From: Thermomicrobiales bacterium
GTDB lineage: Bacteria; Chloroflexota; Chloroflexia; Thermomicrobiales; CFX8
Reading direction: 5' to 3'
Length of the DNA: 64,000 nt
Assembly: GCA_041390865.1 (NCBI GenBank)
Contig: JAWKPC010000002.1
Coordinates: 388,584 to 452,583 of the forward strand
Shown: positions 7,365-59,346 of the stretch, one piece after another
How the letters are laid out: each line of letters opens with the position of its first letter
Numbering within the stretch: position 1 is the stretch's first letter
Notes under the pieces: generated by a model
Told to the model about the DNA's origin: nothing
What the model saw: only the letters and a program-made list of their open reading frames with translations
The model's database searches: none
Translations under genes and position numbers: made by a program

Positions 7365-10112
7365 TTGGCAGCACTAGCTTCACAGTCCATCCCGCTCCTC
7401 AAAACCAAACTCTTTGTGCCGCAGGTGCAACTGAACCATGTGGCTCGGCCTCAATTGCTTCGGCGATTGGATGAGGGGCTGCATGGCAAGCTGACCCTCA
7501 TCTCGGCTCCGGCTGGTTTCGGGAAGACCACTCTTCTGAGTGCATGGGCTTCTACGTGTGGCAGGCCGGTCGCATGGCTGACACTGGACGAAGCAGAAAA
7601 CGATCTGTCTCGATTCCTGTCGTATTTCGTTGCCGCGCTCCAGACTGTGGTGGCGTCGAATCTGGATGCAGGAGCGCTAAGTTCATCCTCATCGGCTTCA
7701 TCGCCCCCAGCGCACGCCATACTGACGGTCGTGCTGAACAATCTCAGCGCTGTTCCCGAAAAGCTACTCATTATCCTTGACGACTATCACCTGATTGATA
7801 ACGAGCTTGTCGATCAGGCCATCGCCTTCCTGCTAGAGCACTTGCCGCCCCAGTTGCACCTGGTTATCGCTACTCGCCAGGATCCTCTGCTCCCCATGGC
7901 CCGCCTGCGCGCTCGTGGACAGTTGACTGAACTGCGCGCCAGTGATCTACGTTTCTCCTCTACCGAAGCTCTCGAGTTCTTCAACGAGGTGACGGGGCTC
8001 AGTCTTTCGGAAGCGGATATCGCCGCTCTCGATGAGCGCATAGAAGGCTGGGTGGCTGGTCTGCAACTGGCGGCGCTGTCGCTGAGGGGGCATCAGGATG
8101 CCAGCGGGTTTATCAAGGCATTTGCCGGAGACCACCGGTACATCGTGGACTATCTGGTTGATGAGGTGCTGCAGCGCCAGCCGGCGTCCGTCCGCAACTT
8201 CTTCCTGCAGACTGCCGTGCTCGAGCGGTTGCACGGCCCGTTGTGCGAGGCCGTCACTGGCCAGGAAGATGGCAGCGTGCTGCTGGAGTCTCTCGCTCGT
8301 GGCAACTCGTTCATCATGCCGCTGGATGACCGGCGTCAGTGGTATCGCTACCATCACCTCTTCGCTGATGTGCTGCGCGCCTATCTGCAGGCGGAGCAGC
8401 CGGGTCAGATCGTCGCGCTGCATCTGCGTGCGAGCGCGTGGTACCAGCAGCACGGCTCGGTGGCCGATGCCATCCGCCATGCGCTGGCTGCCGGGGATTT
8501 CGCGCGAGCGGCGGACCTGGTCGAGCAGGCCTTGCCCGCAGCCCGTCAGGACCGCCTGGGCGCCACCTTACTCGGCTGGCTCAGAGCTCTTCCCGACGAC
8601 CTGGTCCGACGGCGACCGGCGTTGAGTGTGGCGTATGCCTGGGTGCTGATGAACGCTGGCGAGCTTGAAGGTGTCGAGGAGCGGCTGAGCGATGCCGAAC
8701 GGTGGCTGGATGTTGCGCCGCACGCGCGACTGGAGGCCCCGGAGACAGAGATGGTCGTCGTGGTCGACGAGGAGTTTCGCCGTCTCCCCGGCCTGATCGC
8801 TGCCTATCGTGCCGGACATGCTCACCTGCTGGGTGACATCCCCACCACCATGACACACGCTCGAAGGGCGCTCGACCTTATCCAGGAGGACGACCAGCTC
8901 ACGCGCGGAGCGGCGGGGGCGCTCCTGGGACTCGCTTGCTGGGCCAGCGGGGACCTGGAGTCTGCCCAGCAGCACTATGCCGCTGGCATGGCAAGCCTGC
9001 AGAAGATCGGGATGCTCTCGGACGTCATCAACGGCGCCAACACCGTGGCGGCAATCGCTATGGCCCAGGGCCGGCTCCGCGACGCGGAGCGCACGCTGCA
9101 ACAGGCGATGCAGCGCGCCGAGGAACTGGGCGAGCCGAGCCTGCACGGAACTCCAGACTTCCTGATCGGATTGAGCGAGCTGCGGCGTGAGCGGGCCGAC
9201 CTGACCACTGCGACCAGGTACCTGGTGCGCTCCCAGGAGCTTACCCTGGGTGCGGGAGTTGCCCACAATCGCTCTCGTTGGTGTATGACCATGGCCCGCA
9301 TCAAGCAAGATCAGAGAGATCTGGAGGGTGCGCTGGTACTCCTCGACGAGGCGGAGCACCTCCGTCTGCCTGACTTCTTCCCCAACGCGCGTCCGGTCGC
9401 GGCGCTGAAGGCGCGCGTGTGGATTGCCCAGAGGAGGTTGGGCGATGCTTTCAGCTGGGCGTGCGAGCAAAGCCTGTCCACTGAGGACAGCCTCGACTAT
9501 CTGCGCGAGTTCGAGCACATTACCCTGGCCTGGCTGCTCCTAGCTCGCCACGCCACAGACCATGGACCCTGCTCGATGGACAAGCTCATGGTGTTCCTGG
9601 AGCGCCTCCTGCAAACGGCGGAAGATGGTGGGAGGAAGGGGAGCGTCATCGAAGTCCTGATCCTACAGGCGCTTGCCCACCAGGCATGCGGCGATAGCCC
9701 CGCGGCGTTCGTGCCATTGGAACGTGCCCTGAAGCTGGCTGAGCCGGAGAGCTATGTCCGCGTCTTTGTCGATGGCGGTGCGCCCATGGCCGCCTTGCTG
9801 GACGCCTGTGCGAAACATGGGATCGCCCCGGCCTATGTTCGCGAGCTGCTCACGGCCTTTGACGGGGCTGGGCTTGGAACTCCCGTCAAACAGGACCTGA
9901 TCGAGCCATTGAGCGAACGTGAACTTGACGTTTTGCGATTGCTCCGGTCCGAACTGGACGGCCCGGAAATCGCCCGCGAACTCAACGTTTCGCTAAACAC
10001 CATCCGGACGCACACCAAGAACATCTACAGCAAGCTCGGGGTGAACAGTCGCCGGGCGGCGGTCCGTCGATCCGAGGAACTCAAGCTGCTAGCGCAGACT
10101 CGTGAAGTCTAG
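7365..10112 (+). CDS. MalT-like LuxR-family transcriptional regulator (STAND NTPase + helical repeats + C-terminal LuxR HTH)
   Basis: Walker A motif LISAPAGFGKTTLL and Walker B-like LIILDDYH. C-terminal LuxR HTH: LSERELDVLRLL...NTIRTHTKNIYSKLGV. The start is uncertain. The ORF opens at 7257, and I favour the TTG at 7365, just before the typical PLLKTKLFVPQ N-terminus. Confidence 0.85.
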   Translation: MAALASQSIPLLKTKLFVPQVQLNHVARPQLLRRLDEGLHGKLTLISAPAGFGKTTLLSAWASTCGRPVAWLTLDEAENDLSRFLSYFVAALQTVVASNLDAGALSSSSSASSPPAHAILTVVLNNLSAVPEKLLIILDDYHLIDNELVDQAIAFLLEHLPPQLHLVIATRQDPLLPMARLRARGQLTELRASDLRFSSTEALEFFNEVTGLSLSEADIAALDERIEGWVAGLQLAALSLRGHQDASGFIKAFAGDHRYIVDYLVDEVLQRQPASVRNFFLQTAVLERLHGPLCEAVTGQEDGSVLLESLARGNSFIMPLDDRRQWYRYHHLFADVLRAYLQAEQPGQIVALHLRASAWYQQHGSVADAIRHALAAGDFARAADLVEQALPAARQDRLGATLLGWLRALPDDLVRRRPALSVAYAWVLMNAGELEGVEERLSDAERWLDVAPHARLEAPETEMVVVVDEEFRRLPGLIAAYRAGHAHLLGDIPTTMTHARRALDLIQEDDQLTRGAAGALLGLACWASGDLESAQQHYAAGMASLQKIGMLSDVINGANTVAAIAMAQGRLRDAERTLQQAMQRAEELGEPSLHGTPDFLIGLSELRRERADLTTATRYLVRSQELTLGAGVAHNRSRWCMTMARIKQDQRDLEGALVLLDEAEHLRLPDFFPNARPVAALKARVWIAQRRLGDAFSWACEQSLSTEDSLDYLREFEHITLAWLLLARHATDHGPCSMDKLMVFLERLLQTAEDGGRKGSVIEVLILQALAHQACGDSPAAFVPLERALKLAEPESYVRVFVDGGAPMAALLDACAKHGIAPAYVRELLTAFDGAGLGTPVKQDLIEPLSERELDVLRLLRSELDGPEIARELNVSLNTIRTHTKNIYSKLGVNSRRAAVRRSEELKLLAQTREV

Positions 10113-45312: not shown

Positions 45313-45578
45313 GGTGAGTTCCTTTCGTTTCGGGGAGTGTAGCGTGGAGTTTGTAGTGCGTAGGTTGTCGTTTGTAGGGAACGGCCGGAGAAATCCTCAT
45401 CCTTGTCTCCTCTGCTAATTGATGCCGGAGTGGGATGTGTCTGTGGCAGCGACAAAAGCCCTCCCTCTATATCGAGGGGGGACAGGTGAGAGAGCCCGCT
45501 TATCCCACGTACAATATGGACAGGAATAACGATTCAATCGTGGTGGATGTCCGGACGTTTCCGGGAGATTGGAGCGCC

Positions 45579-47432
45579 ATGAGCACGACCTCGCAACCGG
45601 CTGCACCATCTCAGCCCAGGCCGCCCGCGTCTCCGGCACCGTTGAAATTCGCGCGGGATGTCATCAAGCTTGGCGTCGACGCCACCACCGCCTACGAACG
45701 GCCTGATTTGCAGGAGCGGATTCAGCTTGCCCTGAACCGGCTGGACAGGCCGGACACGATTGTCTGTGTGACCGGCGAGTTCAAGAAGGGCAAGAGCGCG
45801 CTGGTGAACGGCTTGCTCGGTGACGACTACTGCCCGGTTCACGACGATCTGGCAACGTCGGCGATCACGATTCTCCGCCATGGCGACGAGCCGTCGATTA
45901 GCGTCCGCCGGCACGAAGCTGGCGAAACGGTCGTCGAGCCGATCGAGCGCGACCAGATCCGGGATTTCGCGACTGAAGAGGGCAACCCTGAAAACGCCCG
46001 CAACGTCGAGTTCGTCGAGCTGCAGGTTCGGAACGGGTTGCTGGCGCGCGGGGTGACGCTGGTCGATACACCGGGGTCCGGGACGCTGGCCTCGGGGTAC
46101 GGAGCCGCGACGCTGGCGTTCCTCCAGTCCGCCGACGCGCTGATCTTCGTGACCGACTGCTCGCAGGAGCTGATCGAGCCGGAAGTCGAGTATCTGCAGG
46201 AGGCGGTCAAGCGTTGCGCGACGGTCATGGTCGTGATGACCAAGATCGATCTCTATCCCGAGTGGAGACGGATTGTCGAGATCAATCGGGAGCATCTCGA
46301 GCGGGCCGGCATCGAAGCGCCGATCGTTCCGGTCTCCTCGACCCTCCGGAACGTAGCTCTCCAGGAACGCGACCGTGACCTGAACAACGAGAGCGGTTTT
46401 CCCGAGCTCCTCGACGCGCTAAGGACGGAGATCCTCGACCAGGCAGGAAAGCGGGCGGCGTTCGAGGCGCTGATGGCGACCCGGACGGCGGCCGATCAGA
46501 TGATCGGAGCCTATCAATCGGAGCTCGACATTCTCGCCGATCCGGAGCGGGCCACCGAGGAGATCGAGCGGCTTGAAGACGCGAAGGAGCGGCTGAACGC
46601 GTTGCGCGGCGCCGGCTCCCGGTGGGCGACGGTCATGAACGACGGTTTTTCCGTCCTCACGTCGAACGTCGATTACCAGTTTCGCTCGACGATGCGCGGC
46701 ATTCTCCGGAGCACCGAGGAACGGATTGAAGATACCGATCCATCGAGCGAGTGGGATGAGATCACCGAGCGACTGCAGAGCGATGTCGCGAAGGCGGTCG
46801 AGGAAGCGTTCAACCGGATCGATGACGACGTCGGGCAGCTTCGCGACACGATCTCAGCGATGCTTCGGGACGAGACGACGGCTATCTGGCAGACGTCGGC
46901 CGGATCGATCTCGATCGGCGTTGAAGACATGTGGAGCGAACGCGAGATCGAGGATGAGAATATCGGCCAGAAGATCTTCAAGGGCCTGAATGCGATGCGC
47001 GGTTCCTACATGGGATTGCTGATGGTCGGGATGCTCGGCAATTTCGTTGGACTGGCGATGATCACTCCTGTCCTGATCGGGGCCGGCGTGCTGTTTGGCG
47101 GCCGACAATTTCTCGAAGAGCGGAAACGCGATGTCACCCGCAAGCGCCAGCAGGCACGCACGTTCGTCCGGCAGTTCGTCGACGACGTCCAGTTCGAAGC
47201 GGGAACGCGCATCCGCGAGACGACGCGCGATTTTCAGCGCGAGATGCGCGATTACTACACCGACCGGATCGGCGAGCTGGCCCAGACCTATACCGAAGCG
47301 GTCCAGAACACTCAGAATAGCCTCAAGCAGGACGAATCCTCGCGAGAGTCGCGCAAGCGCGATCTGACGACGCGGATCGAGAAGCTGACCGAGCTACGGC
47401 GCAGAGTGGAGATTGCCGAGGAGCGGCTGTGA
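45579..47432 (+). CDS. Bacterial dynamin-like protein 1 (GTPase with hydrophobic membrane paddle)
   Basis: G1 GEFKKGKS, G3 DTPGSG, G4 TKID, and long helical stalk regions. Hydrophobic segment YMGLLMVGMLGNFVGLAMITPVLIGAGVLFGG (about 47006-47100). The ATG at 45579 follows ggag. Confidence 0.85.
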   Translation: MSTTSQPAAPSQPRPPASPAPLKFARDVIKLGVDATTAYERPDLQERIQLALNRLDRPDTIVCVTGEFKKGKSALVNGLLGDDYCPVHDDLATSAITILRHGDEPSISVRRHEAGETVVEPIERDQIRDFATEEGNPENARNVEFVELQVRNGLLARGVTLVDTPGSGTLASGYGAATLAFLQSADALIFVTDCSQELIEPEVEYLQEAVKRCATVMVVMTKIDLYPEWRRIVEINREHLERAGIEAPIVPVSSTLRNVALQERDRDLNNESGFPELLDALRTEILDQAGKRAAFEALMATRTAADQMIGAYQSELDILADPERATEEIERLEDAKERLNALRGAGSRWATVMNDGFSVLTSNVDYQFRSTMRGILRSTEERIEDTDPSSEWDEITERLQSDVAKAVEEAFNRIDDDVGQLRDTISAMLRDETTAIWQTSAGSISIGVEDMWSEREIEDENIGQKIFKGLNAMRGSYMGLLMVGMLGNFVGLAMITPVLIGAGVLFGGRQFLEERKRDVTRKRQQARTFVRQFVDDVQFEAGTRIRETTRDFQREMRDYYTDRIGELAQTYTEAVQNTQNSLKQDESSRESRKRDLTTRIEKLTELRRRVEIAEERL

Positions 47433-48910
47433 GCGCGGCTGCCCACGTTGGCGAGCGGGTGAACTACCTTTGTGACCAGGCGATGCTGGCGGTTCACGGT
47501 ACGCCGCTTGCCGCCGAAATCACCTCCATTCGCCAGCGGATGAGCGAGCCGTTGCGGGTCGCGATCGCCGGGCGGGTCAAGGCCGGGAAATCGACACTGC
47601 TCAACGCGCTGGTCGGTGAGCGGCTGGCGCCGACGGACGCCGGCGAGTGCACCAGGGTCGTGAGCTGGTACCGCCAGGGCTTCGGCTATGAAGTGCGGGC
47701 AACCCTCCGGAGCGGCGAGTCTCGGGAACTCCGCTTCCGCCGGGACGACGGGCGTTTGGAGATCAACCTCGGCCGCTACGATATCGAAGAGATCGACCGG
47801 ATCGACGTCAATTGGCCGTCGTCGAACCTGTCGAGAATGACGTTGATCGATACACCCGGACTGGCGTCGCTCACCGCGGGCGCATCGGTGCGGACGCATG
47901 ACTTCCTCGCGCTGCACGACGAAGACCGGCAGAGCGATGCCGATGCCGTGCTCTATCTGATGCGGCACATGCACAGCCGCGACGCCGAATTTCTCGAAGC
48001 GTTTTTCGATGATTCGCTGGCGAACACGTCTCCGGTCAATGCCATTGCCGTGCTCTCGCGTGCCGACGAGATCGGCGCCGGACGGCCGGATGCGCTGGAG
48101 TCGGCTGCCAGAATCGCCGAGCGCTACGGCAGGGATGAGCGGATTCGCGCGCTGTCCGTCAGCGTCCTCCCGGTCGCCGGTCTGCTGGCCGAGACCGGCA
48201 CGACGCTCCAGGAGCATGAAGCGTCGTCGATTCGGGCACTGACCCGGATCGAGGAGGATGAGCTGCGGCGGATGCTCCTGTCGGTCGACCGCTTCCTTGC
48301 GCCGGAAGCCAGCGACCTGCTGGTCGAAACGCGGCGAGAACTGCTCGACAGGCTGGGGCTGTTCGGCGTTCGGTTGGCTATCCAGAAGGTTCGTAGCGGC
48401 GAGGCCCTTTCGGCCGTCGACCTGTCGCAGATTCTGATCGACGCGTCGGGGCTGGAGACGCTGCGGAGCTTGCTCGAGCAGCATTTCAGCGCCCGCGCGA
48501 TGGCGCTCAAGGGCCGGTCCGCGCTGGTGTCGCTCCGGAATTGCGCCCGCGATCTGATGGAGATCGACCGGAACGCGGGCCGGCGATTGTTCGCCGAGAT
48601 CGAGCAGGTTGAGATTTCCACCCACGCCTTCGCCGAGCTGCGGCTGCTCCACATGATGCTGACCGGCCAGATCAAGCTGACGGAAGATGAGCAAGCCGAG
48701 GTGAACCGGCTAACCAGCGGCGGCGGGCTGGAGCAGCGGGCTGGCGTCGATCAGGATGCAACGGACGAGCAGATCCAGCAGGCGGCGCTGGCCGGCATCG
48801 CGCGCTGGCGGCAACGTGCCGCAAGCCCGCTGCTCGATCGCGCGGCGGCGGATGCGTTCGAGATCGCCGCCCGGTCGTACGAGGGTATCTACGCGCAAGT
48901 GGCCGGATAA
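47429..48910 (+). CDS. Bacterial dynamin-like protein 2 (no hydrophobic segment)
   Basis: G1 GRVKAGKS, G3 DTPGLAS, G4-like LSRAD. The GTG start overlaps the upstream TGA (GTGA), which implies translational coupling. Confidence 0.85.
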   Translation: MSAAAHVGERVNYLCDQAMLAVHGTPLAAEITSIRQRMSEPLRVAIAGRVKAGKSTLLNALVGERLAPTDAGECTRVVSWYRQGFGYEVRATLRSGESRELRFRRDDGRLEINLGRYDIEEIDRIDVNWPSSNLSRMTLIDTPGLASLTAGASVRTHDFLALHDEDRQSDADAVLYLMRHMHSRDAEFLEAFFDDSLANTSPVNAIAVLSRADEIGAGRPDALESAARIAERYGRDERIRALSVSVLPVAGLLAETGTTLQEHEASSIRALTRIEEDELRRMLLSVDRFLAPEASDLLVETRRELLDRLGLFGVRLAIQKVRSGEALSAVDLSQILIDASGLETLRSLLEQHFSARAMALKGRSALVSLRNCARDLMEIDRNAGRRLFAEIEQVEISTHAFAELRLLHMMLTGQIKLTEDEQAEVNRLTSGGGLEQRAGVDQDATDEQIQQAALAGIARWRQRAASPLLDRAAADAFEIAARSYEGIYAQVAG

Positions 48911-49008
48911 CAATACATTTCCCGACTTGCAGGATCGTCTGCTAGTCTGACGCAGCATGTATCCGGGATAGCCCGTAAACGGGTTTTGGAGTGATTGAGA
49001 GATGAAAC

Positions 49009-50556
49009 GTGCACAGGTTCGGGCGTTGGGTGTTGGTCTTGAGCGTGGTCGCGTTGCTGGCGCCCGTGCTGCCGGTTGGCTTCGTTGCGGCGGATGATGC
49101 CGTCGTCGGAGGCGCCTGCGACGATACCGAATTCAACAGCGCGCTGGCGGCTGCCCAGTCGAACGGGGGCGGCACGATAACCTTCGATTGCGGAGGGCCT
49201 GCGACGATCCTATTTGGCGCTGTCAAGACGATTTCGGCATCCAATAGCGTGATCATCGACGGCGGCGGTCAGATTACATTGAGCGGTGCAACGGCCGTTC
49301 AGTTGTTTGATGTGGAATCCGGCGCAACGCTCGAGCTGCGGGATATTACGCTCACGGACGGACAGGCCGGGCTTGGCGGCGCGATAGCGAACGCCGGAAC
49401 GCTTCGGATCGTGAACAGCACGCTGACGGAGAACGAGGCTGATGGCGCAGGCGCGGTGTACAACGAGGGTGATGCGACGATTACGGACAGCGTTCTGTCC
49501 TCGAATGTCGCTCAGAACGCCGGGGTGATCCTCAACGTCGGAACGTTGGAGATCACCGGCAGCGTATTCTTTGAGAATACCGGGACGGCGGCATTTGCCG
49601 GAGGGATTCTCAATGGAGGCACCGCGACGATTACCGATACGACATTCGAGCTCAATTCGTCGTTCTTTGGCGGGGCGATCACGAATACCGAGAATGCCGT
49701 CCTTGATCTGTTCGGCTCGACGTTTGTTGAAAACGCCGCAACGGGAACCGGCGCCGGAATCTACAACGACGACGGCTTCGTGACGATCACGAATAGCACG
49801 TTCAGCGGCAACAGCAGCCCGCTTGGTCCGGCGGTGTTCAGCACCGACGGCGTTACCGAAATCATCGCCAGCACGGTGACGGACAATAGTTCTGAATCGG
49901 GCAGCCTCGACAATGACCAGGGCGGTACGATCATCCTGCGTCAGACGATCGTCGCCGACCAGAACTCCGGGGCGGATTGCGATGGGTCGATGACGTCGGA
50001 TGATTACAACCTCGACAGCGACGGAACCTGCAATCTCACCGCTTTGCATGACATTACCAACGGAGATCCCGAGCTCGGACCGCTGGTCGACAATGGCGGC
50101 GAAACCCTTACCCACATGCCTGCTCAGTCGAGCGTGGCCGTCGACAGCGGCGGCTTCAGCTGCCCGAGCGTCGATCAGCGAGGGAAGCCCCGGCCGGCTG
50201 GGGCTGGCTGCGATATCGGTGCGGTCGAGTTGCAAACGGCGGCGACCTATGCCCTGTGCGCCGATTACTACACAGGCCGAGTCATGAGTCCCTTCAACGG
50301 CCAGTGCGGCACGCGACAGTTCGAGCTGGATGTGCCGGAGAGCTACCCGCTGGCCTTCTGTATCGACGCCTATACCGGTGTGGTCGGTTACACCTTTGGC
50401 CGGCCATGCAACCCGCCCCGGCAGATTCACCTGATGCCAGATGATGGCGATCTGCTGACCTGCGTCAGCTACTACACCAGTTTGAATCGCCGGGTGTACA
50501 ACCATAGCCAGTGCCGGCCGAACGAAATACCGAACTTCATTCCTGCCGCTCTCTAG
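49009..50556 (+). CDS. Secreted right-handed parallel beta-helix protein with a C-terminal triple Cys-pair repeat
   Basis: Signal-like N-terminus MHRFGRWVLVLSVVALLAPVLPVGFVAA. About 20-residue beta-helix rungs (GGAIANAGTLRIVNSTLTENEA..., GAVYNEGDATITDSVLSSN...). VDQRGKPRP...CDIGAVE motif, then three ~33-aa C-x-x-YYTG...C repeats. Confidence 0.75.
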   Translation: MHRFGRWVLVLSVVALLAPVLPVGFVAADDAVVGGACDDTEFNSALAAAQSNGGGTITFDCGGPATILFGAVKTISASNSVIIDGGGQITLSGATAVQLFDVESGATLELRDITLTDGQAGLGGAIANAGTLRIVNSTLTENEADGAGAVYNEGDATITDSVLSSNVAQNAGVILNVGTLEITGSVFFENTGTAAFAGGILNGGTATITDTTFELNSSFFGGAITNTENAVLDLFGSTFVENAATGTGAGIYNDDGFVTITNSTFSGNSSPLGPAVFSTDGVTEIIASTVTDNSSESGSLDNDQGGTIILRQTIVADQNSGADCDGSMTSDDYNLDSDGTCNLTALHDITNGDPELGPLVDNGGETLTHMPAQSSVAVDSGGFSCPSVDQRGKPRPAGAGCDIGAVELQTAATYALCADYYTGRVMSPFNGQCGTRQFELDVPESYPLAFCIDAYTGVVGYTFGRPCNPPRQIHLMPDDGDLLTCVSYYTSLNRRVYNHSQCRPNEIPNFIPAAL

Positions 50557-50573
50557 AGCGAACGATCGACATT

Positions 50574-50610
50574 CCGCCCCCGTCCGGCGCCGGACGGGGG
50601 CGGTTTGTTC
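50574..50610 (+). terminator. Strong rho-independent terminator after the beta-helix gene
   Basis: ccgcccccgtccgg / cg / ccggacgggggcgg followed by tttgttct. Confidence 0.8.
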
Positions 50611-50732
50611 TATGTATGGGTGGTCCATGATTCCTTTGATGGTCCGCGAGGTGTATCGCGCGATACACCTCGGCTGTCAATTCACCGCTAGACTGAGCAT
50701 GGCTATCAGAGTCTGGCAGGGAGGCAGTGGCT

Positions 50733-51272
50733 ATGGAGCGCAGCAAGCGACAGGAGCATTGCAGGGACGAGCCGGCCGTAACGTTCGAGCTGGAGGAGAC
50801 CCCGCAGGACCGTAGCCGGAGCCGCCTCGGAGCGGCCGGCGCTGCGGCAGTTACCGGCGCCGGGTTGATCTCGAGCGGCGCGACGCCGGAGTTTGGCGAT
50901 ACTCTGGATGTGTTCGATCAGGCCGAGACTCCGGATGCCGCGACTGGAGAGGTTCCGACGACCAGCTTCGAGGAGCTTGGCGGCGAGGACCCGGAATTTC
51001 CACCGATCGACTTCGAGGGGCCAGTTGACGAGACGATTGAGGATGCGGCTCCGTGGGTATCGACGGGCGAGGAATCCGATGCGACATTCGGGGCCACCTC
51101 GGACGTTGGCGGGGGGTATGCGCTCGAAGATATCCCGGACAACGAAGCGTTCGGAGCTGCCGATGCCGAGATCGATGTCGAACTCGTTCCGGATGCGCTC
51201 GTCGACCACGATGGCCTGGGGGACGATGCCGACGTTGATGCGGACGAGTTGCACGATATCGACCTGACCTGA
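50733..51272 (+). CDS. Small hyper-acidic protein with basic N-terminus and Gly/Ala-rich anchor-like segment
   Basis: The ATG at 50733 follows GGGAGG. MERSKRQEH...RSRSRLGAAGAAAVTGAGLISSGA, then a D/E/T/P-rich region ending DADVDADELHDIDLT. Same N-terminal layout as the giant protein downstream. Confidence 0.55.
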   Translation: MERSKRQEHCRDEPAVTFELEETPQDRSRSRLGAAGAAAVTGAGLISSGATPEFGDTLDVFDQAETPDAATGEVPTTSFEELGGEDPEFPPIDFEGPVDETIEDAAPWVSTGEESDATFGATSDVGGGYALEDIPDNEAFGAADAEIDVELVPDALVDHDGLGDDADVDADELHDIDLT

Positions 51273-51533: not shown

Positions 51534-54500
51534 ATGGTGTTCGACGAAAATCAGCGGCGCGGTCCCGGGGACGCGCCGTCGGGAGGAAACTCTGCCCGTC
51601 AGCCGCGACGGCGCGGGATCGCCGGCATCGTTGCGGGAGCCGGTGCTGCGGGAGCCGGTCTGGGGGTTGGCTCGGCAGCCGGTCTCATTGCCGGTGACGA
51701 CGCGGTCGCGTTCATTCGCGAGCAGACCGGCGACCATGCTGCCGTCGACCAGTCGCGTCTGGCCGAAGCGCGCGAGCGCATCGAAGTGGCCGAAGAAGCC
51801 GCGCGGGCGGCGAGCTACGACGTCTTTGAAAGCCGTGCCGCAGAGCTAGATGCGGCCCTTCCGTCCGGAGTTGCCGAGTCAGCAGGGATTATCGGCAACG
51901 CTCTTCCACCCCTTCCCGCTGCGGAAGAGGAAGGCGGCGAGTCTGAACCGGATATCCAGGGAACACCGCCGACTGGGCGGCCTCCGGTCACCACGCCGGA
52001 GCCGGACGACAGCGTGCCCGCCGGTGACGCGCCGCCAACGACCGGCGGCCGGCCGGCCACCGGCCCGCCGCAGCCGGGAGCCGGTCAGGAATCCGAGTCC
52101 GAAGCTCCAGAGGCGCCCAGCCTTGGGAGTCCGATCGAAGGCGACGATACCCCGCCATCTCCGGAAGCGCCGAGCCCGCCGGGTTCAGCCTCGCCGCCGG
52201 ACGGGCCGGAACCGCCCGCACCATCATTTGTCAGCCCGCCTTCCGGTGGACCGTCCCCCGAAACCGGTGGAGGTTTGGACGAGATCGTCGACGAAAGTCC
52301 GGCGCCGCCACCGGCCGGCCCCGCTCCGGCAGGCCCGGGAGGCGCACCGCCGGTTTCACCGCCTGACGCCGGCCCTTCGGAGCCGGACGGCATCGTGGCC
52401 GAGTCGCCATCGACCGATGGCGGCCCTGCTCCGGATGCCCCGGAAACCAACGATGAGGCCGTTCCTCCGTCATCGAGCGCGCCGACTGTCCCGGGAACGT
52501 CCGGGGAAAGCGCGCCCCCGGCATCCTCGGGTCCGGTCGATTCTTCGCCGGTGTCGAGCGATCCGGACGCCTCCAGCTCTCCGTCCGTTCCCGAAACGCC
52601 CGCGGCTCCCGGCGGCTTCAACGAGCCATCCGGATCTTCGGACGATGCCGGATCGGAAGACTCTTCGTCCGAAAGTATCGACGGCAGCGACGCGCCGTCG
52701 ATACCTGTCGGATCCGGCGGTTCTTCCGAGGAAGAGTCCAGCGGAAGTTCCTCGTCGAGCGAGGGGGCGAGCCAGTCGAGCGACTACCCCTACGTCTACC
52801 AGTGGGACGACGACGGCGACTGGGTCGATGTCGCGATGCAGAACGATCGGGGTGAGGTCTACTACCTGCGTTATCAGGATGACGGCACCGTCTATTACCT
52901 GAACCCGGAAGGCGAGTACGACCAGGTCCAGGGCGAGAACCTTCCCCATCTGCTCTACGTCGATGACCAGGGCGTCGCCTATTTCTCGAAGATGCAGTAC
53001 CAGCACACGGTCTACTTCTCGGTCGACACCGAGGGCGACTTCGACTGGATCGACCATGAAGATGTCCCGGGCTATGAGGAGACGCCGGACGAGGACGACT
53101 ACGACTATCCGCGCGTTATCGACTACGAGTACGGCGACGAGTCCTGGGCACTGGTCGAGATGGAAGACGGCCGGTTCGTCAAGTATTACGACGAGGGTGG
53201 CGCCTACTGGGTCGATGAGTATGGCAACGAGACGCCTGTCTCCGGGTTCCAGGTGCCGACATTACTCTATGTCGACGGCGATGGAGACGCCTACTTCCGC
53301 GTGTTCATCGAGAACGAAGGCGATTACCGCTATTACACGATCGACCACGACGGCGGTGTCGAGTACATCCATGATTACGATGTCCCCGGCTACGAGGAGC
53401 CGCCATATGAGGAGGAGTACGAGTACCCGCGCGTCGTCGAGTGGGATGCCGATGAGGGCTGGGTGATCGTCCAGAACGAGGACGGCTACTACGCCAAGAT
53501 CTATGAAGACGGCCAGGCGTATCCCGTCGACGAGTATGGCGATCCGATCGCCACCAACGGGGTCGGCTACTACTATCCGGACCTGCTCTACGTCGACGAA
53601 TATGGCAACGCCTACTTCCGGAGCGGCGACCCCGGCAACTACTCCTACTACATGATCGACCATGACGGCGGCGTCGAGTACGTCAACTACGAGGACATCC
53701 CGGAATACGAGGATCCGCAGTATGACGACGACGGCTATCCGATCGTCACGCTCTGGGATCACGAGGCGGGTTGGGTCGTCGTTCAAGAGGACGAGGACCA
53801 CTACAGCAAGTACTACACCGACGGCAACGTGGAGAGCGTTGACCAGCATGGCAACGCGCTACAGCCAAATGGGCTTGCGCCAGAGCTTGGCCAGTTGCTC
53901 TACATCGAAGCCGGGGGCGATGCCTACTTCCGGAGTGGTGAGCCGGGGAACTACGAATACTACACGGTCGACCAGTACGGACACGTCGAGTACATCCACT
54001 ACAGCGATGTCCCCGGCTACGAGCCGGAACCGGGCGAGGGAGAGGAGTACGAGTATCCACGGGTCATCGAGTGGGACGCCGACGATGGCTGGGTCATCAT
54101 CGAGGATGAGAACGGCGACTACGTCAAGTACTACGAGAACCGGCCGCCGCACTTCGTCGATGCCGAAGGAAACGAGATTCCGGGGAACTATCCGAACCAG
54201 GCCCGGCTCATCCAGGTCGACCAGTATGGCAACTCCTACTTCCAGTATCTGGAGGACGGCGAGTATGCCTATATCCAGGTCGACGGCGACGGCGGGATCG
54301 AGAATGTCGATCCGCACGACATCCCCGGCTTCGAGTACGAAGAGCTCGACGACCAGTACGACTATCCGAGAACGGTCGATTGGGATGCGAATGCCGGCTG
54401 GGTGATCGCCGAGACGGACCTTGGCTATCAGGTCAAGCTCTACGAGAACGGCGAGGCGTACTTCGTCGATGACTACGGCAACGAGACGCCGGTCGGCGAC

Positions 54501-57500
54501 TATCCGGTGCTGGTTCTGATCCAGGTTGACGAGTACGGCACCGCCTATCTACGCGGGGGCGAGGGGCCGGACTACACCTACTACACGATCGACCATGACG
54601 GCGGCATCGAGTACATCCAGTATGAGGACATTCCGGGCTACGAGGACCTGGAGCCGCCGTATGAGGACGGCTACCCGCGGCTACTCGATCACTACGACGG
54701 CGAACCGGACTGGGCGCTCGTCGAACACGAGGATGGCCGGATCATCAAGTACTACGCCGACGGCGGCGAGTATCAGGTCGGTCCGGACGGAGGCGAAACG
54801 CCGATCATGACTGCGGACCATCTCCTGTCGGTCGATCAGTACGGGAACGTCTACTTCCAGCGATATGACGTCGACGGCCATCACCAGTACTACACGATCG
54901 CCGAGGGCGGTGGCGTCGAGTACGTCGATCCCTACGGTATTCCCGGCTACGAGGTCCCCGAGGACTATCAGCCCTACGAATACCCGCGCGCGATCGAGTG
55001 GGACGCCGACGAAGGATGGGTCACGATCGACGATGGCGAAGGGCACTACGTCCGCTACTACGAAGACGGCCACGCGGACCTCGTCGACCAGTACGGCAAT
55101 CCGGCAGCTCCGAATGGAGCCGCCGTTCCGGACACCCGCCTGGTCTATGTCGATGCGGACGGCAACGCCTACTTCGAGGATTACGACGCCGACGGGGATA
55201 TTTCCGGTTACTTCATGATCGACTATGACGGTGGGATCGAAGCGGTCGAGCCGGATGACATTCCTGGATATGAGGAGCCGGAACCTCCCTACGAAGACGG
55301 GCATCCCCCGTACTTCTATGAGGACTACCCGAATCCTCTCTACGGCGATCTCGAACCGGATGGTGATCCTGTCTATGCCAACGGCGGCTACCAGCAGACG
55401 TACAACGACGGTCAGGTTGTCGTCACCTGGAATCAGGAGGGCGGCCCCTACGAGATTCGCTACTATAGCGAGGAGAACGCAGGCGGCTACCTCCAGCTTC
55501 ACCTGACCTACGATGCGTACGACTACGGCTACCAAACGTCGGTCTACCCGTACGACTACTACGACCATGTCGAAGACGGCTTCGATCTCCAGCAGATCGA
55601 CCACTACGTCGATTACGCCTACCTCGGCGTTCCGTACGACAACATGGAGATCTCGAACACGGAGGTCGAATACTACTGGTACGACAATGACGGCGATCTG
55701 GTCCAGAAGACGACGGTCAACCGGGTCACCGGCGAAGTGACCTATCAGTACGACGACCTCTACATTCACGTCGATCAGTACGGGAACGAGACCTACGACG
55801 GTAATCCCGATCCGAACTGGATGGCCCCGGAAGGCTACGGGCAGGGCGAAGACCTCTACCCGCCCTATGGCATGCCGCCCTACCTGGTGTTCGGCGAGGG
55901 CTATGAGTACGAGGAGCAGTACGCCGACCCGGAAGCGGCAGGCTACACGCTCATCAGCGCGACGCCAGAAGACGACCCAGCGCAGTGGCAGTATCTCGGG
56001 CCGAACGGGGAGCGGATTATCGTCAACCAGCTTGACGATAACACCTATCAGTACGCCTACCAGAATGACCCGAACGCTCAGCCGGGAGTCTGGGAGATGG
56101 TGATCAACGTCAACGTCGACGAGTACGGCAACTACGTCTCAGACGACGCGGTTGACGGCACGTACTACGACGAATGGTATGACGACGCCCTGCAGGACGA
56201 GGACTACGAGTATCCGCGAACCCATCTCTGGGACACAGAAGACAACTGGGTTGTCCTCGAGTTGACCGAGGGACAGTATGTCCGCTACGACGAGTACCGC
56301 CCGCCCTATCTCGTCGACGAGTACGGCAACGAGATCGCCGGCCAGGGTTCTCTCGGCGGAGCTGAGCATCTGCTCTACGTCGACGAGTACGGCAACGCCT
56401 ACTTCCGTAGCGGACAGCCGGGTAACTATTACTACCAACTGGTGGATCATGACGGCGGGGCCACTGAAGCTAGCCCGGACGACATTCCTGGTTACGAGGA
56501 GGACCCGGCGGCTGACAACTACGAATACCCGCGCGTCGTCGAGTGGGACGCCGGCCAGGGTTGGGCCATGATCCAGCTTGACACGGGGTATCAGGTCAAG
56601 TTCTACGAGAATGGCAACGCCTACTACGTCGATGGGCAGGGCAACGAGATTCCTGCAACCGAATACAGCGGTCAATACCAGCTGATTGAGGTCGATACGC
56701 AGGGCAACGCCTACGTTCGCGCCGGCGAGGATTCCTACTACCGGGTGGACCCTGATGGCGGCGCCGATGGGATCGAAGCCGGCGACATCCCGGGATACGA
56801 CGCTGGTGCTGTCGTCGAGGAGTACTACGATGCGGCCTGGGCCGAACACTACGACCCCGGCTACGGCTATGAGCATCCCTTCGATCTCTACGGTCAGCCA
56901 GACCCTCCGGGAGAGAACCAGAATCCCAACGTCCACGTCTTCGGCGGCGGCCGGGCGATGGTCGTCCGCAACGCCGACGGCAGCGAGACGATCACCTGGT
57001 ACTCCGAGGGCGGTTATCAGGATGGCTACGTCGAGTACAAGGCGACGGTCGAGTACGAGGGCGGCCAGTGGGTGACCGAGACCGAGTCGATTCCGGTCGA
57101 CTACATCCCGCAGTACGGCATGTACACCGTCGAGGGATCGCCGGTCTATGACCCGTATCACCCCGACGCTCCCTGGGGCGAGCCGGATGCCGTCACGATC
57201 CTCGACGATCGCGTGATCGCGATATGGGAGACCGACGAAGGGCAGGTCCGCTCCGAGTGGTACCGCGACGGCTCTGACTACCGTGAGGTCCGCTACCCGG
57301 ATGGGCTGGTGATCAGCTGGGGCGGCGACGAATGGGAGTACGAAGCTCCGGACGGATGGGTTCCACCGGAGTACGACCAGATGCTACCGGGAGATTATGA
57401 CGCCGACGGCTATCTGCCTGATGGCGCTCCCGAGTATTTCGGCGATGAGATGTGGGTGAACCCGGAGACCGACGAGCGTTTCGAGTTCCAGAGCGAGGGG

Positions 57501-59346
57501 CATCCCGCGGACGGCGTCGTGAGCCGGATCTATCAGGCCGACCTCGACGATGACGGCCGATACGACTATCAGATCACGGTGCTGGAGCAGCCCGACGGCA
57601 CGGTCTACGTCGACTACTACAACATGGATACCGGACAGGCCGACGCCCGCGTAACCGTCGATCAGAATGCCGAGGGTTACTACGACACCTACAACGTGAC
57701 GCCCTACTACGAGGGCGCTCAAGGGGTTCCTCCTTACGAGGAACAGGCAGGCCAGCCGGACTACGACGTCGAATATGACGCGCAATACGTTTACAGCTTG
57801 CTCCCGGACGGCCTGCCGCCGTCCTTCGAAGGCGGCTACGGGAACCCGGAGTACATCCTCGAGTACAACTACCACCATTCGGAAACGTATGGCGACGTCA
57901 CCGTTCACCTGTTCGATCACGCCGGCGGTTACTCCGTCGTCGTGCGGGAGAACCCGGACGGTACCCAGACGTTGTACTGGCACGATGAGCCGGCCGGCTC
58001 GCTCTCCCCGCCGTACACCGATGGCGCAGAGGCGCGGGCGATGATCTATGCCGACGGCCAGTACTACACGGAGTACTGGGACGACGGCCAATGGGTCGAC
58101 GACCCGCCGGACTACGATCAGCCGGAGGAGTATGACTTCGAGGCCGACGGCTACCTGCCGGACGGCACGCCCGAGTACTTCGTCGACGAGCGCTGGCCGG
58201 AACCCCGAGATCGACGATCGTTTCCAGATGACGAATCACTCGGAGACGCAGGACGGCGGCTATGCCCGGATCTACAACGCAGACCTGGATGGGAACGGCG
58301 TCTGGGACTATCAGATCACCGTGATCGAGAATCCCGACGGTCAGGTCGAGGTCGAGTACGCCGGCGCCAATGGTCTGGAAGCCCGATTTTACGTGACCCA
58401 GGACGCCGGCGGTTACTACGACGCCTACGACCACGACTACTATGTCGACAACCCCCAGGGCGCCGCCGAGTACACCGAAGCCCAGTCGAGTTATCTGGTC
58501 ACCGAGGAAACCGACGGTGCTGAGACCGAAGAGGAGACGCAGGAGGCCGAAGCTCCGGAAGTGGTAGAAGAACCGGCAGGCGACGCTCCGGAGGGGGCCG
58601 GTATGGTCGCCCCGGAGTACGTCTTCTACGGTCTGCCCGCCTACTTCAGCTACGACGGCATGGACTATCCCAGCCCGGCGCAGGGCGACTGGGAGTACCA
58701 GGGCGTCCAGTCCGTCGGCGGGATGAACATGCATCAGTTCTCATACGGGAACTACACGGTGATGGTTCAGGACGGCCAGGGCATCGACCGGACGGTCTAC
58801 GTCAATGACCACTCGACCGGAAGCAGCGTCGATGCGGGCTACATTCTGCGCGCGAACGGCGCGGTCGAGGTCCATCCGGACTGGGCCGTGGCGGAACAGG
58901 ACGCGCCTCCGGCCGAAGAACCCGAGGAGCCCGAAGCTGCCGGCGCGCCGGGAGAAGACGAAGTCGTCGAAACTGACGGGACGGCCCGGGCTGAAGTGGA
59001 AGCTGCGGACGAAGATCCGGAAGCGGACGGCGACGATCTGGAGTTCCTGACCGAAGAGGAGCCGCAGTCCGCTGAGACGGAAAGTCCTGACGGTGAGTCC
59101 GGGGAGGACGAGCCGCTGACCTTCAACGGTCCGGAAACGGGTGTTGAAGAAACGTTGCCAGTCGAGACGGCCGCCGAGAACGGGTCAACCGAAGAGACGA
59201 TCGAGCCGGTCGAGATCGCCCAGCCGGAGATCGTCGAACCTGAAGATGACCTCGAACCCGTCACGGCGGCGGCGGTGGAGGAAGACGACGCCTTCGCCGA
59301 TGACAGCTTCGACGACGACGATGATGATGACGGAACCGGCCTGTAG
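51534..59346 (+). CDS. Giant (~2,600 aa) membrane-anchored, cysteine-free, Tyr/Asp/Glu/Gly-rich tandem-repeat surface protein; the reading frame needs a +1 correction at ~58,200
   Basis: The track splits it into 51534-58523 and 58048-59346. Skipping nt 58200 joins ...EYFVDERWP to NPEIDDRFQ..., which parallels the in-frame paralogous segment ...EYFGDEMWVNPETDERF. Layout: basic N-terminus, Gly/Ala TM-like segment (about 51615-51700), Pro/Ser/Gly spacer (about 51880-52780), ten ~105-aa repeats, two copies of a larger module, and an acidic tail ending DDDDDDDGTGL. Confidence 0.8.

Follow-up and report, generated by a model that had tools for sequence, protein, structure and literature searches.

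An iniA/iniC-type dynamin gene pair and an adjacent Pmp-like beta-helix gene in a variable slot of a Thermomicrobiales genome

The dynamin gene pair at the locus

The 64-kb window analysed here, a stretch of 64,000 nucleotides (nt) from the metagenome-assembled genome (MAG) of a Thermomicrobiales bacterium (contig JAWKPC010000002.1, positions 388,584 to 452,583), carries three open reading frames (ORFs) on the + strand between 45.4 and 50.6 kb, as given by the ORF list. Genes 1 and 2 encode two bacterial dynamin-like proteins (BDLP1 and BDLP2), and gene 3 encodes a secreted beta-helix protein. A first-pass annotation had proposed that these genes constitute a novel BDLP-BDLP-beta-helix module. 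Instead, we find that the dynamin pair is a homologue of IniA/IniC, and that the beta-helix gene does not share in the conservation of this pair.

Gene 1 lies in the ORF 45435-47432, and its likely start is the ATG at 45579, which has GGAG upstream and is common to relatives. From this start (45579-47432, + strand, like all features below unless stated otherwise), it encodes an IniA-like BDLP of 617 amino acids (aa) with a Dynamin_N domain (Pfam, 8e-22), for which our search found 1069 homologues. Motif search locates G1 GEFKKGKS at 45774-45797, G3 DTPG at 46065-46076 and G4 TKID at 46239-46250. In the hydropathy scan, gene 1 displays a single strongly hydrophobic stretch, aa 477-508 (nt ~47007-47102), with a maximum Kyte-Doolittle value (KD19) of 2.12, inside a hydrophobic, lipid-interacting-loop-like segment at 46995-47111. 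This stretch coincides with the paddle that had been placed at 47006-47100.

Gene 2 (47429-48910) encodes an IniC-like soluble dynamin-like partner of 493 aa (Pfam Dynamin_N, 3e-13). Its GTG start overlaps the TGA stop of gene 1 by 4 nt, and this GTGA overlap (CTGTGAGC), which had been read as translational coupling, is present at 47429-47432. The same motif search locates G1 GRVKAGKS at 47570-47593, G3 DTPG at 47849-47860 and, at 48056-48067, a G4 with the sequence SRAD, which is an (S/N)RxD variant and not N/TKxD; its residues R211 and D213 are invariant in 41 homologues. The earlier description of intact G1, G3 and G4 motifs in both GTPases therefore applies to all three motifs of gene 1 and to G1 and G3 of gene 2, whose G4 is this variant. 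Additionally, the hydropathy scan detects no hydrophobic segment in gene 2 (maximum KD 1.35), so that the paddle is confined to the first GTPase, and the anchored/soluble partner layout holds. The AlphaFold2 model of gene 2 (pLDDT 83.7) has a dynamin-like fold, and the PDB structures that match it best are SynDLP, CjDLP1/2 (Campylobacter DLP1/2), Nostoc BDLP, mitofusin(s) and IniA.

BDLP1 matches Mycobacterium smegmatis IniA (PDB 6J72) with an E value of 3.8e-93, with aa 37-599 aligned to 16-581. The alignment takes in the MRGSY...GAG hydrophobic region, in which MRGSYMGLLMVGMLGNFVGL pairs with MRGSYGGVLMFGMLTSFAGL. IniA mediates membrane fission, and its hydrophobic region comprises a predicted transmembrane (TM) segment and a lipid-interacting loop (PMC6715688); gene 1 is thus similar to IniA over its full length, including this region. 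For the second gene, a Nocardia farcinica locus recovered by tblastn (L096) serves as the reference. Here, three consecutive genes encode an IniB_NTERM protein, an IniA orthologue (E 4e-167 against 6J72) and a third protein, with a 4-nt overlap between the second and third genes. Across 92% of the length of BDLP2, the product of this third, IniC-position gene is 39.5% identical to it, and Nocardia iniA and the next gene share the order and sizes of the window pair. IniC itself is smaller than IniA and has no obvious lipid-binding sequence; it physically binds IniA, as judged from co-purification, and vesicle release in mycobacteria requires both proteins (PMC10240201). Likewise, the window pair has a smaller second dynamin-like protein (DLP) that lacks a lipid-binding segment and is encoded directly downstream with a 4-nt overlap. 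Because gene 1 matches IniA end to end and gene 2 matches the Nocardia gene at the IniC position, sequence comparison identifies genes 1 and 2 of the window as an iniA/iniC-type bicistron, which is a known kind of gene pair and not an undescribed type.

The pair also departs from the iniBAC arrangement in several respects. Its host is a Chloroflexota (Thermomicrobiales) MAG and not an actinobacterium, and the identity of gene 1 to IniA is merely in the 30-40% range. Moreover, the locus lacks iniB: no neighbour of the window pair matches the IniB domain (NF038175, IniB_NTERM), and the gene upstream of the pair is a divergent DHDPS gene. On the other hand, M. smegmatis and M. phlei are also without iniB (PMC10240201), and because of this the presence of iniB is not strictly defining for IniA/IniC-type pairs. 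The name "IniC" is absent from the source-given names of BDLP2 homologues (120 among the matches listed), and the DynAB preprint leaves the orthology of DynAB to IniAC unsettled.

Paired BDLPs of other kinds are known as well, and most bacterial DLP genes are reported to be paired in operons (PMC6104087). Campylobacter DLP1/DLP2, Nostoc BDLP, Streptomyces DynA/DynB and LeoABC of enterotoxigenic Escherichia coli resemble the window pair in having two DLP genes per operon, a dynamin fold whose neck and trunk are helical, and one membrane-binding partner. In sequence, they resemble the window pair in the GTPase domain alone (E 1e-11 to 1e-3), and the PADLOC Leo models match weakly. An alternative is that the two genes form an anti-phage "Dynamins" (LeoBC/LeoA-like) defence system whose surface-protein neighbours are related to phage receptors. 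The PADLOC LeoBC model matches BDLP1 at 2.6e-20 and the LeoA model matches BDLP2 at 3.3e-11, both of which are weak matches, and B. subtilis DynA is reported to contribute to phage defence (PMC12998192). However, neither PADLOC match comes near the IniA match (E 4e-93) in strength, and both stem from the dynamin fold that these proteins have in common. Furthermore, the locus is chromosomal and vertically conserved, it lies beside the housekeeping genes DHDPS and DAO in all close relatives, and it has no mobile-element or defence-island neighbours. Given the weak PADLOC matches and the housekeeping context, we rejected a defence system as the main explanation, and consider this alternative very improbable.

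The pair is widely conserved. A genome scan together with a metagenome scan recovered 86 loci of relatives (designated by L-numbers) with a BDLP1 homologue at 29-86% identity. BDLP2 lies directly behind BDLP1 in 72 of these 86 loci, most exceptions being contig ends, and 58 of 73 pairs retain the NTGA overlap. The two dynamin genes form a self-contained bicistron with wide conservation. A consensus scan further locates a promoter-like site, GTGAGA-18-TACAAT, at 45486-45515, with the cgTACAAT -10 element at 45510-45515. This cgTACAAT is kept 60-85 nt before the gene 1 start codon in the window, L001-L004, L007 and L095, which is consistent with a promoter function.

The beta-helix gene and its slot in relatives

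Gene 3 (49009-50556, GTG start) encodes a Pmp-like, choice-of-anchor Q right-handed beta-helix protein of 515 aa; in the NCBI call for this MAG (P0001), it starts 7 codons later. A signal peptide (~49009-49092; KD 2.65, VAA-DD) is followed by the beta-helix (~49168-49998), which Pfam Beta_helix matches at 2e-7, above its cut-off, and by a choice-of-anchor Q domain at 50065-50235 (aa 353-409; NCBIfam NF041518, E 1.5e-19, 69.9 bits versus a cut-off of 25). As stated at first pass, the gene is thus on the same strand as the pair and encodes both a signal peptide and a beta-helix, with the correction that it follows gene 2 at a distance of 98 nt and not 99. The protein contains three GGA[ILV]-type and four FxxN motifs of the Pmp type, and 12 Cys residues. 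The AlphaFold2 model, a check that had been suggested for this protein, is indeed a right-handed beta-helix (pLDDT 92.4), and its best PDB fold match is Rhombotarget A (RbtA; 9CDV, E 3.5e-7), followed by pectate/polysaccharide lyase folds and tailspikes.

The family to which gene 3 belongs is large, with 794 homologues at E <= 1e-10, many of which carry PF02415 (Chlam_PMP). Gene 3 shares the signal peptide, the right-handed beta-helix, the GGA[ILV]/FxxN motifs and NF041518 with Pmp-like choice-of-anchor Q proteins such as Chlamydia Pmp (PF02415) and RbtA (9CDU/9CDV). In contrast to these proteins, it has no autotransporter barrel and no GlyGly-CTERM, PEP-CTERM or LPXTG anchor, and ends in a beta-rich, 6-Cys region of ~100 aa (50254-50553); for the C-terminus (aa 408-515), Pfam/NCBIfam and hydropathy scans detect no family match, TM segment or LPXTG. 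A literature search on "choice-of-anchor Q" returned nothing, and one on RbtA returned the structure-target paper alone. No paralogue of gene 3 occurs elsewhere in the window, and the gene bears no compositional sign of foreign origin, with a GC content of 0.63 throughout. The likeliest role of the gene 3 protein is that of an adhesin-like or glycan-binding protein which is exported to the cell surface and evolves under diversifying pressure.

The closest sub-clade comprises seven genomes including the window, with BDLP identities of ~79-86% and nucleotide identities of 74-83%. Within it, we compared the slot, defined as the interval between BDLP2 and the next conserved gene, which encodes a small acidic protein. 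The slot holds one beta-helix gene of type b in the window and in L001, two beta-helix genes in the order a then b in L007, two in the order b then a in L100, and one of type a in L095. In L003 and L004, no beta-helix gene is found, and the small acidic gene lies 110-160 nt behind BDLP2; the missing gene corresponds to a clean junction and not to a gap. The beta-helix copies of the slot fall into two orthogroups, a and b, within which they are 50-71% identical, versus ~80-86% for the BDLPs.

Outside the sub-clade, no beta-helix gene lies beside the pair in L091, L093/L094, L097, L098 or L099, which are all relatives at <=68% BDLP identity. Similarly, a hidden Markov model (HMM) of 80 family members detects no beta-helix homologue in 32 distant loci with >=1.6 kb of sequence downstream of BDLP2, and Pfam scans find no Beta_helix or Chlam_PMP domain in 68 downstream ORFs of distant loci, which contain a mixed bag of other genes instead. 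The synteny comparison thus gives a divided answer: four close relatives (L001, L007, L095 and L100), rather than none, carry beta-helix genes in the slot, and the gene is absent in L003, L004 and all other relatives examined.

These patterns fit a slot history of one acquisition at the base of the Thermomicrobiales sub-clade, followed by repeated loss, duplication and reordering. Specifically, the BDLP tree places L003, whose slot is empty, among carriers, and no beta-helix gene occurs in the slot of L091 (68%) or L093 (61%), which serve as outgroups. The beta-helix gene is a come-and-go neighbour of the dynamin pair and not a conserved third member of its operon.

In related genomes, the main site of the beta-helix family is elsewhere, in tandem arrays beside an FAD-binding oxidoreductase gene with no dynamin nearby (L009, L010 and L101). 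The arrays in these three loci consist of 2-5 beta-helix paralogues at a conserved site, behind which come genes for an FAD_binding_3 oxidoreductase and then for DUF2207, an NTP-transferase, an M24 peptidase and a GMC oxidoreductase. A recent duplication is indicated in L010, where adjacent upstream regions, two in number, are near-identical.

Expression signals and the relation between the pair and the beta-helix gene

The 98-nt intergenic gap (48911-49008) contains a putative -10-like hexamer, TAGTCT (48943-48948), 62 nt before the gene 3 start codon, and a small weak hairpin, GCCCGTAAACGGGTTTT, at ~48960-48978. A terminator scan reveals no strong terminator in this gap, and an Rfam scan of 44-52 kb reveals no RNA family in the gaps; a single snoRNA match in the latter scan was at chance level and was rejected. 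Behind gene 3, at 50574-50603, lies a hairpin resembling an intrinsic terminator, with 12 GC pairs in its 13-bp stem and a T-rich tail. No other strong terminator occurs on the + strand in 44.8-52 kb, in agreement with the earlier statement that the sole strong terminator follows the third gene.

In relatives, the -10-like hexamers TAGACT, TACACT and TAAACT occur at similar distances before the beta-helix genes of L001, L100, L007, L009 and L010. Additionally, in L095 a perfect 26-bp hairpin, a repetitive extragenic palindromic (REP)-like element, stands right after the BDLP2 stop and before the beta-helix gene, and in L007 the gap between BDLP2 and the beta-helix gene extends to 390 nt. With this hairpin and this gap, the beta-helix genes would be separate units at least in L095 and L007. 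In the 64-kb window, TAGACT has 4 copies versus ~10 expected by chance, at 10106, 33122, 42199 (- strand) and 50689 (+ strand). All four copies are intergenic though ten would be expected, and for this reason TAGACT looks like a -10 element. TACAAT and TACACT also occur 27-70 nt before several starts in the window, and the organism probably has T-A-[CG]-A-[AC]-T as its -10 consensus. TAGTCT was not supported as a specific promoter signal, with four of its five sites in the window inside genes.

Alternatively, the window might hold a true three-gene functional operon, in which the dynamins remodel the membrane of sub-clade members to release or present the beta-helix protein, for example as vesicle cargo or as a client of surface export. 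The shared strand, the 98-nt gap and the position of the sole strong terminator behind gene 3 favour this possibility, as do the beta-helix genes in the same slot of five of the seven sub-clade genomes and the requirement of IniAC for extracellular vesicle release in mycobacteria (PMC10240201). However, L003 and L004 have lost the beta-helix gene without replacement, no such gene accompanies the pair in any relative at <=68% identity or in the 32 informative distant loci, and within the slot the type, number and order of the beta-helix genes vary. A hairpin (L095) or a long gap (L007) parts BDLP2 from the beta-helix gene, the main arrays of the family are unlinked to dynamins, and export of the beta-helix protein is already accounted for by its Sec signal peptide. 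On these grounds, we regard a functional three-gene operon as unlikely.

We propose with good confidence that the region consists of two adjacent but separate things, namely an iniA/iniC-type pair and an independent Pmp-like beta-helix gene in a variable slot. In this proposal, the dynamin pair would be transcribed from its own conserved promoter, with coupled translation. By homology, the IniA-like subunit would attach to the cytoplasmic face of the membrane via its hydrophobic, lipid-interacting segment, and the IniC-like subunit would bind the IniA-like one through the G domains, the interface reported for IniAC; GTP hydrolysis would then deform or sever the membrane, for example in vesicle release or envelope-stress repair. 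The beta-helix gene would be expressed from its own promoter (most likely) and/or by read-through from the pair, and its product, exported via Sec, would serve as an extracellular adhesin-like or glycan-binding protein. We infer that it does so independently of the dynamins, and nothing in the comparative data requires a link between the dynamin pair and the beta-helix protein.

Several points weigh against the proposed separation. First, beta-helix genes are retained in the slot in five of the seven sub-clade genomes despite rearrangement, and because of this retention there is room for a lineage-specific link between dynamins and beta-helix proteins; we judge a functional link of this kind to be improbable. 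Second, genes 2 and 3 share a strand here and stand close together (98 nt), and since no strong terminator lies between them, read-through from the dynamin pair into the beta-helix gene is plausible here. Third, the promoter call in the 98-nt gap is weak, TAGTCT being non-specific. Finally, the suggested IniC orthology of gene 2 is positional and draws on similarity to a gene at a Nocardia locus that is itself unannotated, rather than to a curated IniC.

The result is mainly corrective: what appeared to be a novel module is a known dynamin pair next to a gene from a surface-protein family that is common and occurs in multiple copies. At the same time, IniA/IniC-type pairs, which have been studied almost only in mycobacteria (drug tolerance, vesicle release), are widespread in Chloroflexota and non-mycobacterial Actinomycetota. 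There, they form tightly conserved overlapping bicistrons that are usually annotated just as "dynamin family protein" or "GTPase".

The downstream acidic genes and the wider neighbourhood of the pair

Downstream of gene 3 lie two acidic ORFs, with the high acidity reported at first pass (27% and 21.5% Asp plus Glu (D+E)). The first (50733-51272) encodes a small protein of 179 aa with 27% D+E and a G/A-rich hydrophobic stretch, which has no Pfam/NCBIfam match and whose predicted cytoplasmic N-terminus begins MERSKRQEHCRDEPAVTFELEE. It is preceded by an operator/promoter-like element, a perfect 24-bp palindrome at 50648-50671 composed of GAGGTGTATCGC and GCGATACACCTC, which stands 17 nt upstream of TAGACT (50689-50694) and marks the downstream boundary of the variable slot. 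GGTGTA-N8-TACACC together with TAcACT is kept before the small acidic gene in the window, L001, L003, L004, L007/L008 and L095, and judging from its sequence, this palindrome looks like a putative operator for a dimeric regulator.

Homologues of the small acidic protein (164-215 aa) are encoded directly behind BDLP2 or behind the beta-helix insert in L001, L003, L004, L007, L091, L093 and L095. Their kept features are DEPAVTFE, the G/A-rich hydrophobic stretch, SLDVF, PPIDF, DVGGGF and a C-terminal DIDL. The small acidic gene is more deeply conserved than the beta-helix gene, since every Thermomicrobiales-like relative with a BDLP identity of 61% or more has it. The deeper conserved neighbour of the pair in Thermomicrobiales is accordingly the small acidic protein and not the beta-helix protein, which makes it a candidate IniB-like accessory factor; speculatively, it may act as an accessory of the dynamin pair. 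In the distant locus L032, an analogous acidic ORF with a VGGGL motif is seen.

A giant acidic repeat protein is usually encoded behind the small acidic gene in these loci, and it has no known family match. In the window (51534-59346 region), the giant acidic ORF comprises 2329 aa, with D/E/Y-rich repeats of ~100 aa and an N-terminal basic and G/A-rich segment. It ends in an Arg-rich, out-of-frame-looking sequence and overlaps an ORF at 58048-59346 that matches the same giant-gene region of relatives. A frameshift or assembly error near 58.1-58.5 kb in this gene is probable, and the real giant protein may have ~2600 aa.

The conservation of the small acidic gene leads to another alternative, in which the true partner that the pair has in this lineage is the small acidic, G/A-anchored protein, alone or together with the giant acidic repeat protein. 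This partner would be a functional analogue of mycobacterial IniB, and the beta-helix genes would have been inserted later into an ancestral BDLP1-BDLP2-small-acidic unit, which they now interrupt. A small acidic gene on the same strand follows BDLP2 at 70-160 nt in L003, L004, L091 and L093, and it follows the beta-helix insert in the window, L001, L007 and L095; this arrangement is kept down to 61% BDLP identity, and the giant acidic protein comes next in most of these loci. In Mycobacteriales, moreover, the pair is accompanied by IniB, a large low-complexity envelope protein (PMC6715688). On the other hand, the acidic proteins have neither the IniB N-terminal domain nor a known family, a conserved palindrome and -10 element of its own precede the small acidic gene, and no such gene is seen behind BDLP2 in L097, L099 or Actinobacteria-like loci. 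Plain vertical inheritance within one order could also explain the association. We entertain this alternative tentatively, as a possibility that deserves some weight and yet falls well short of being likely.

A broader version would combine these elements, such that the iniA/iniC-like pair of one Thermomicrobiales lineage anchors a co-evolving envelope island made up of a fast-evolving beta-helix hot spot, the small acidic membrane-anchored protein with its palindromic operator, and the >2300-aa acidic-repeat protein. The dynamins might deliver or shed these proteins, for example in vesicles, with the small acidic and giant proteins in the role of IniB. We consider such an island doubtful, and the reading of a separate pair and beta-helix gene is preferred.

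As in the IniA/IniC system, the surroundings of distant homologues repeatedly include genes for LuxR/STAND (IniR-like) regulators and for Hsp70. An Hsp70-family gene lies upstream of BDLP1 in five intermediate relatives (L093, L094, L097, L098 and L099), some of them with DUF7159 or NHL repeats, and a DnaK gene lies behind the iniC-position gene in Nocardia (L096, 7661-9508). LuxR/GerE regulators are frequent near distant pairs (12 of the 68 downstream ORFs, and also L098), and some of them carry AAA_16 and are thus IniR-like. By analogy, the LuxR/AAA_16 regulators near distant homologues are a hint only toward envelope-stress induction of the IniR type.

Two further observations concern the close relatives. 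The dynamin genes of L003 and L004 are broken into several frames in tblastn, probably by frameshifts of long-read assembly rather than as pseudogenes. Finally, a REP-like palindromic element, CCCTCCCTCGAAnnCGAGGGAGGG, recurs between genes of the lineage, at ~45462-45485 in the window, 9760-9900 in L003, 7540-7570 in L007 and 10505-10560 in L095.

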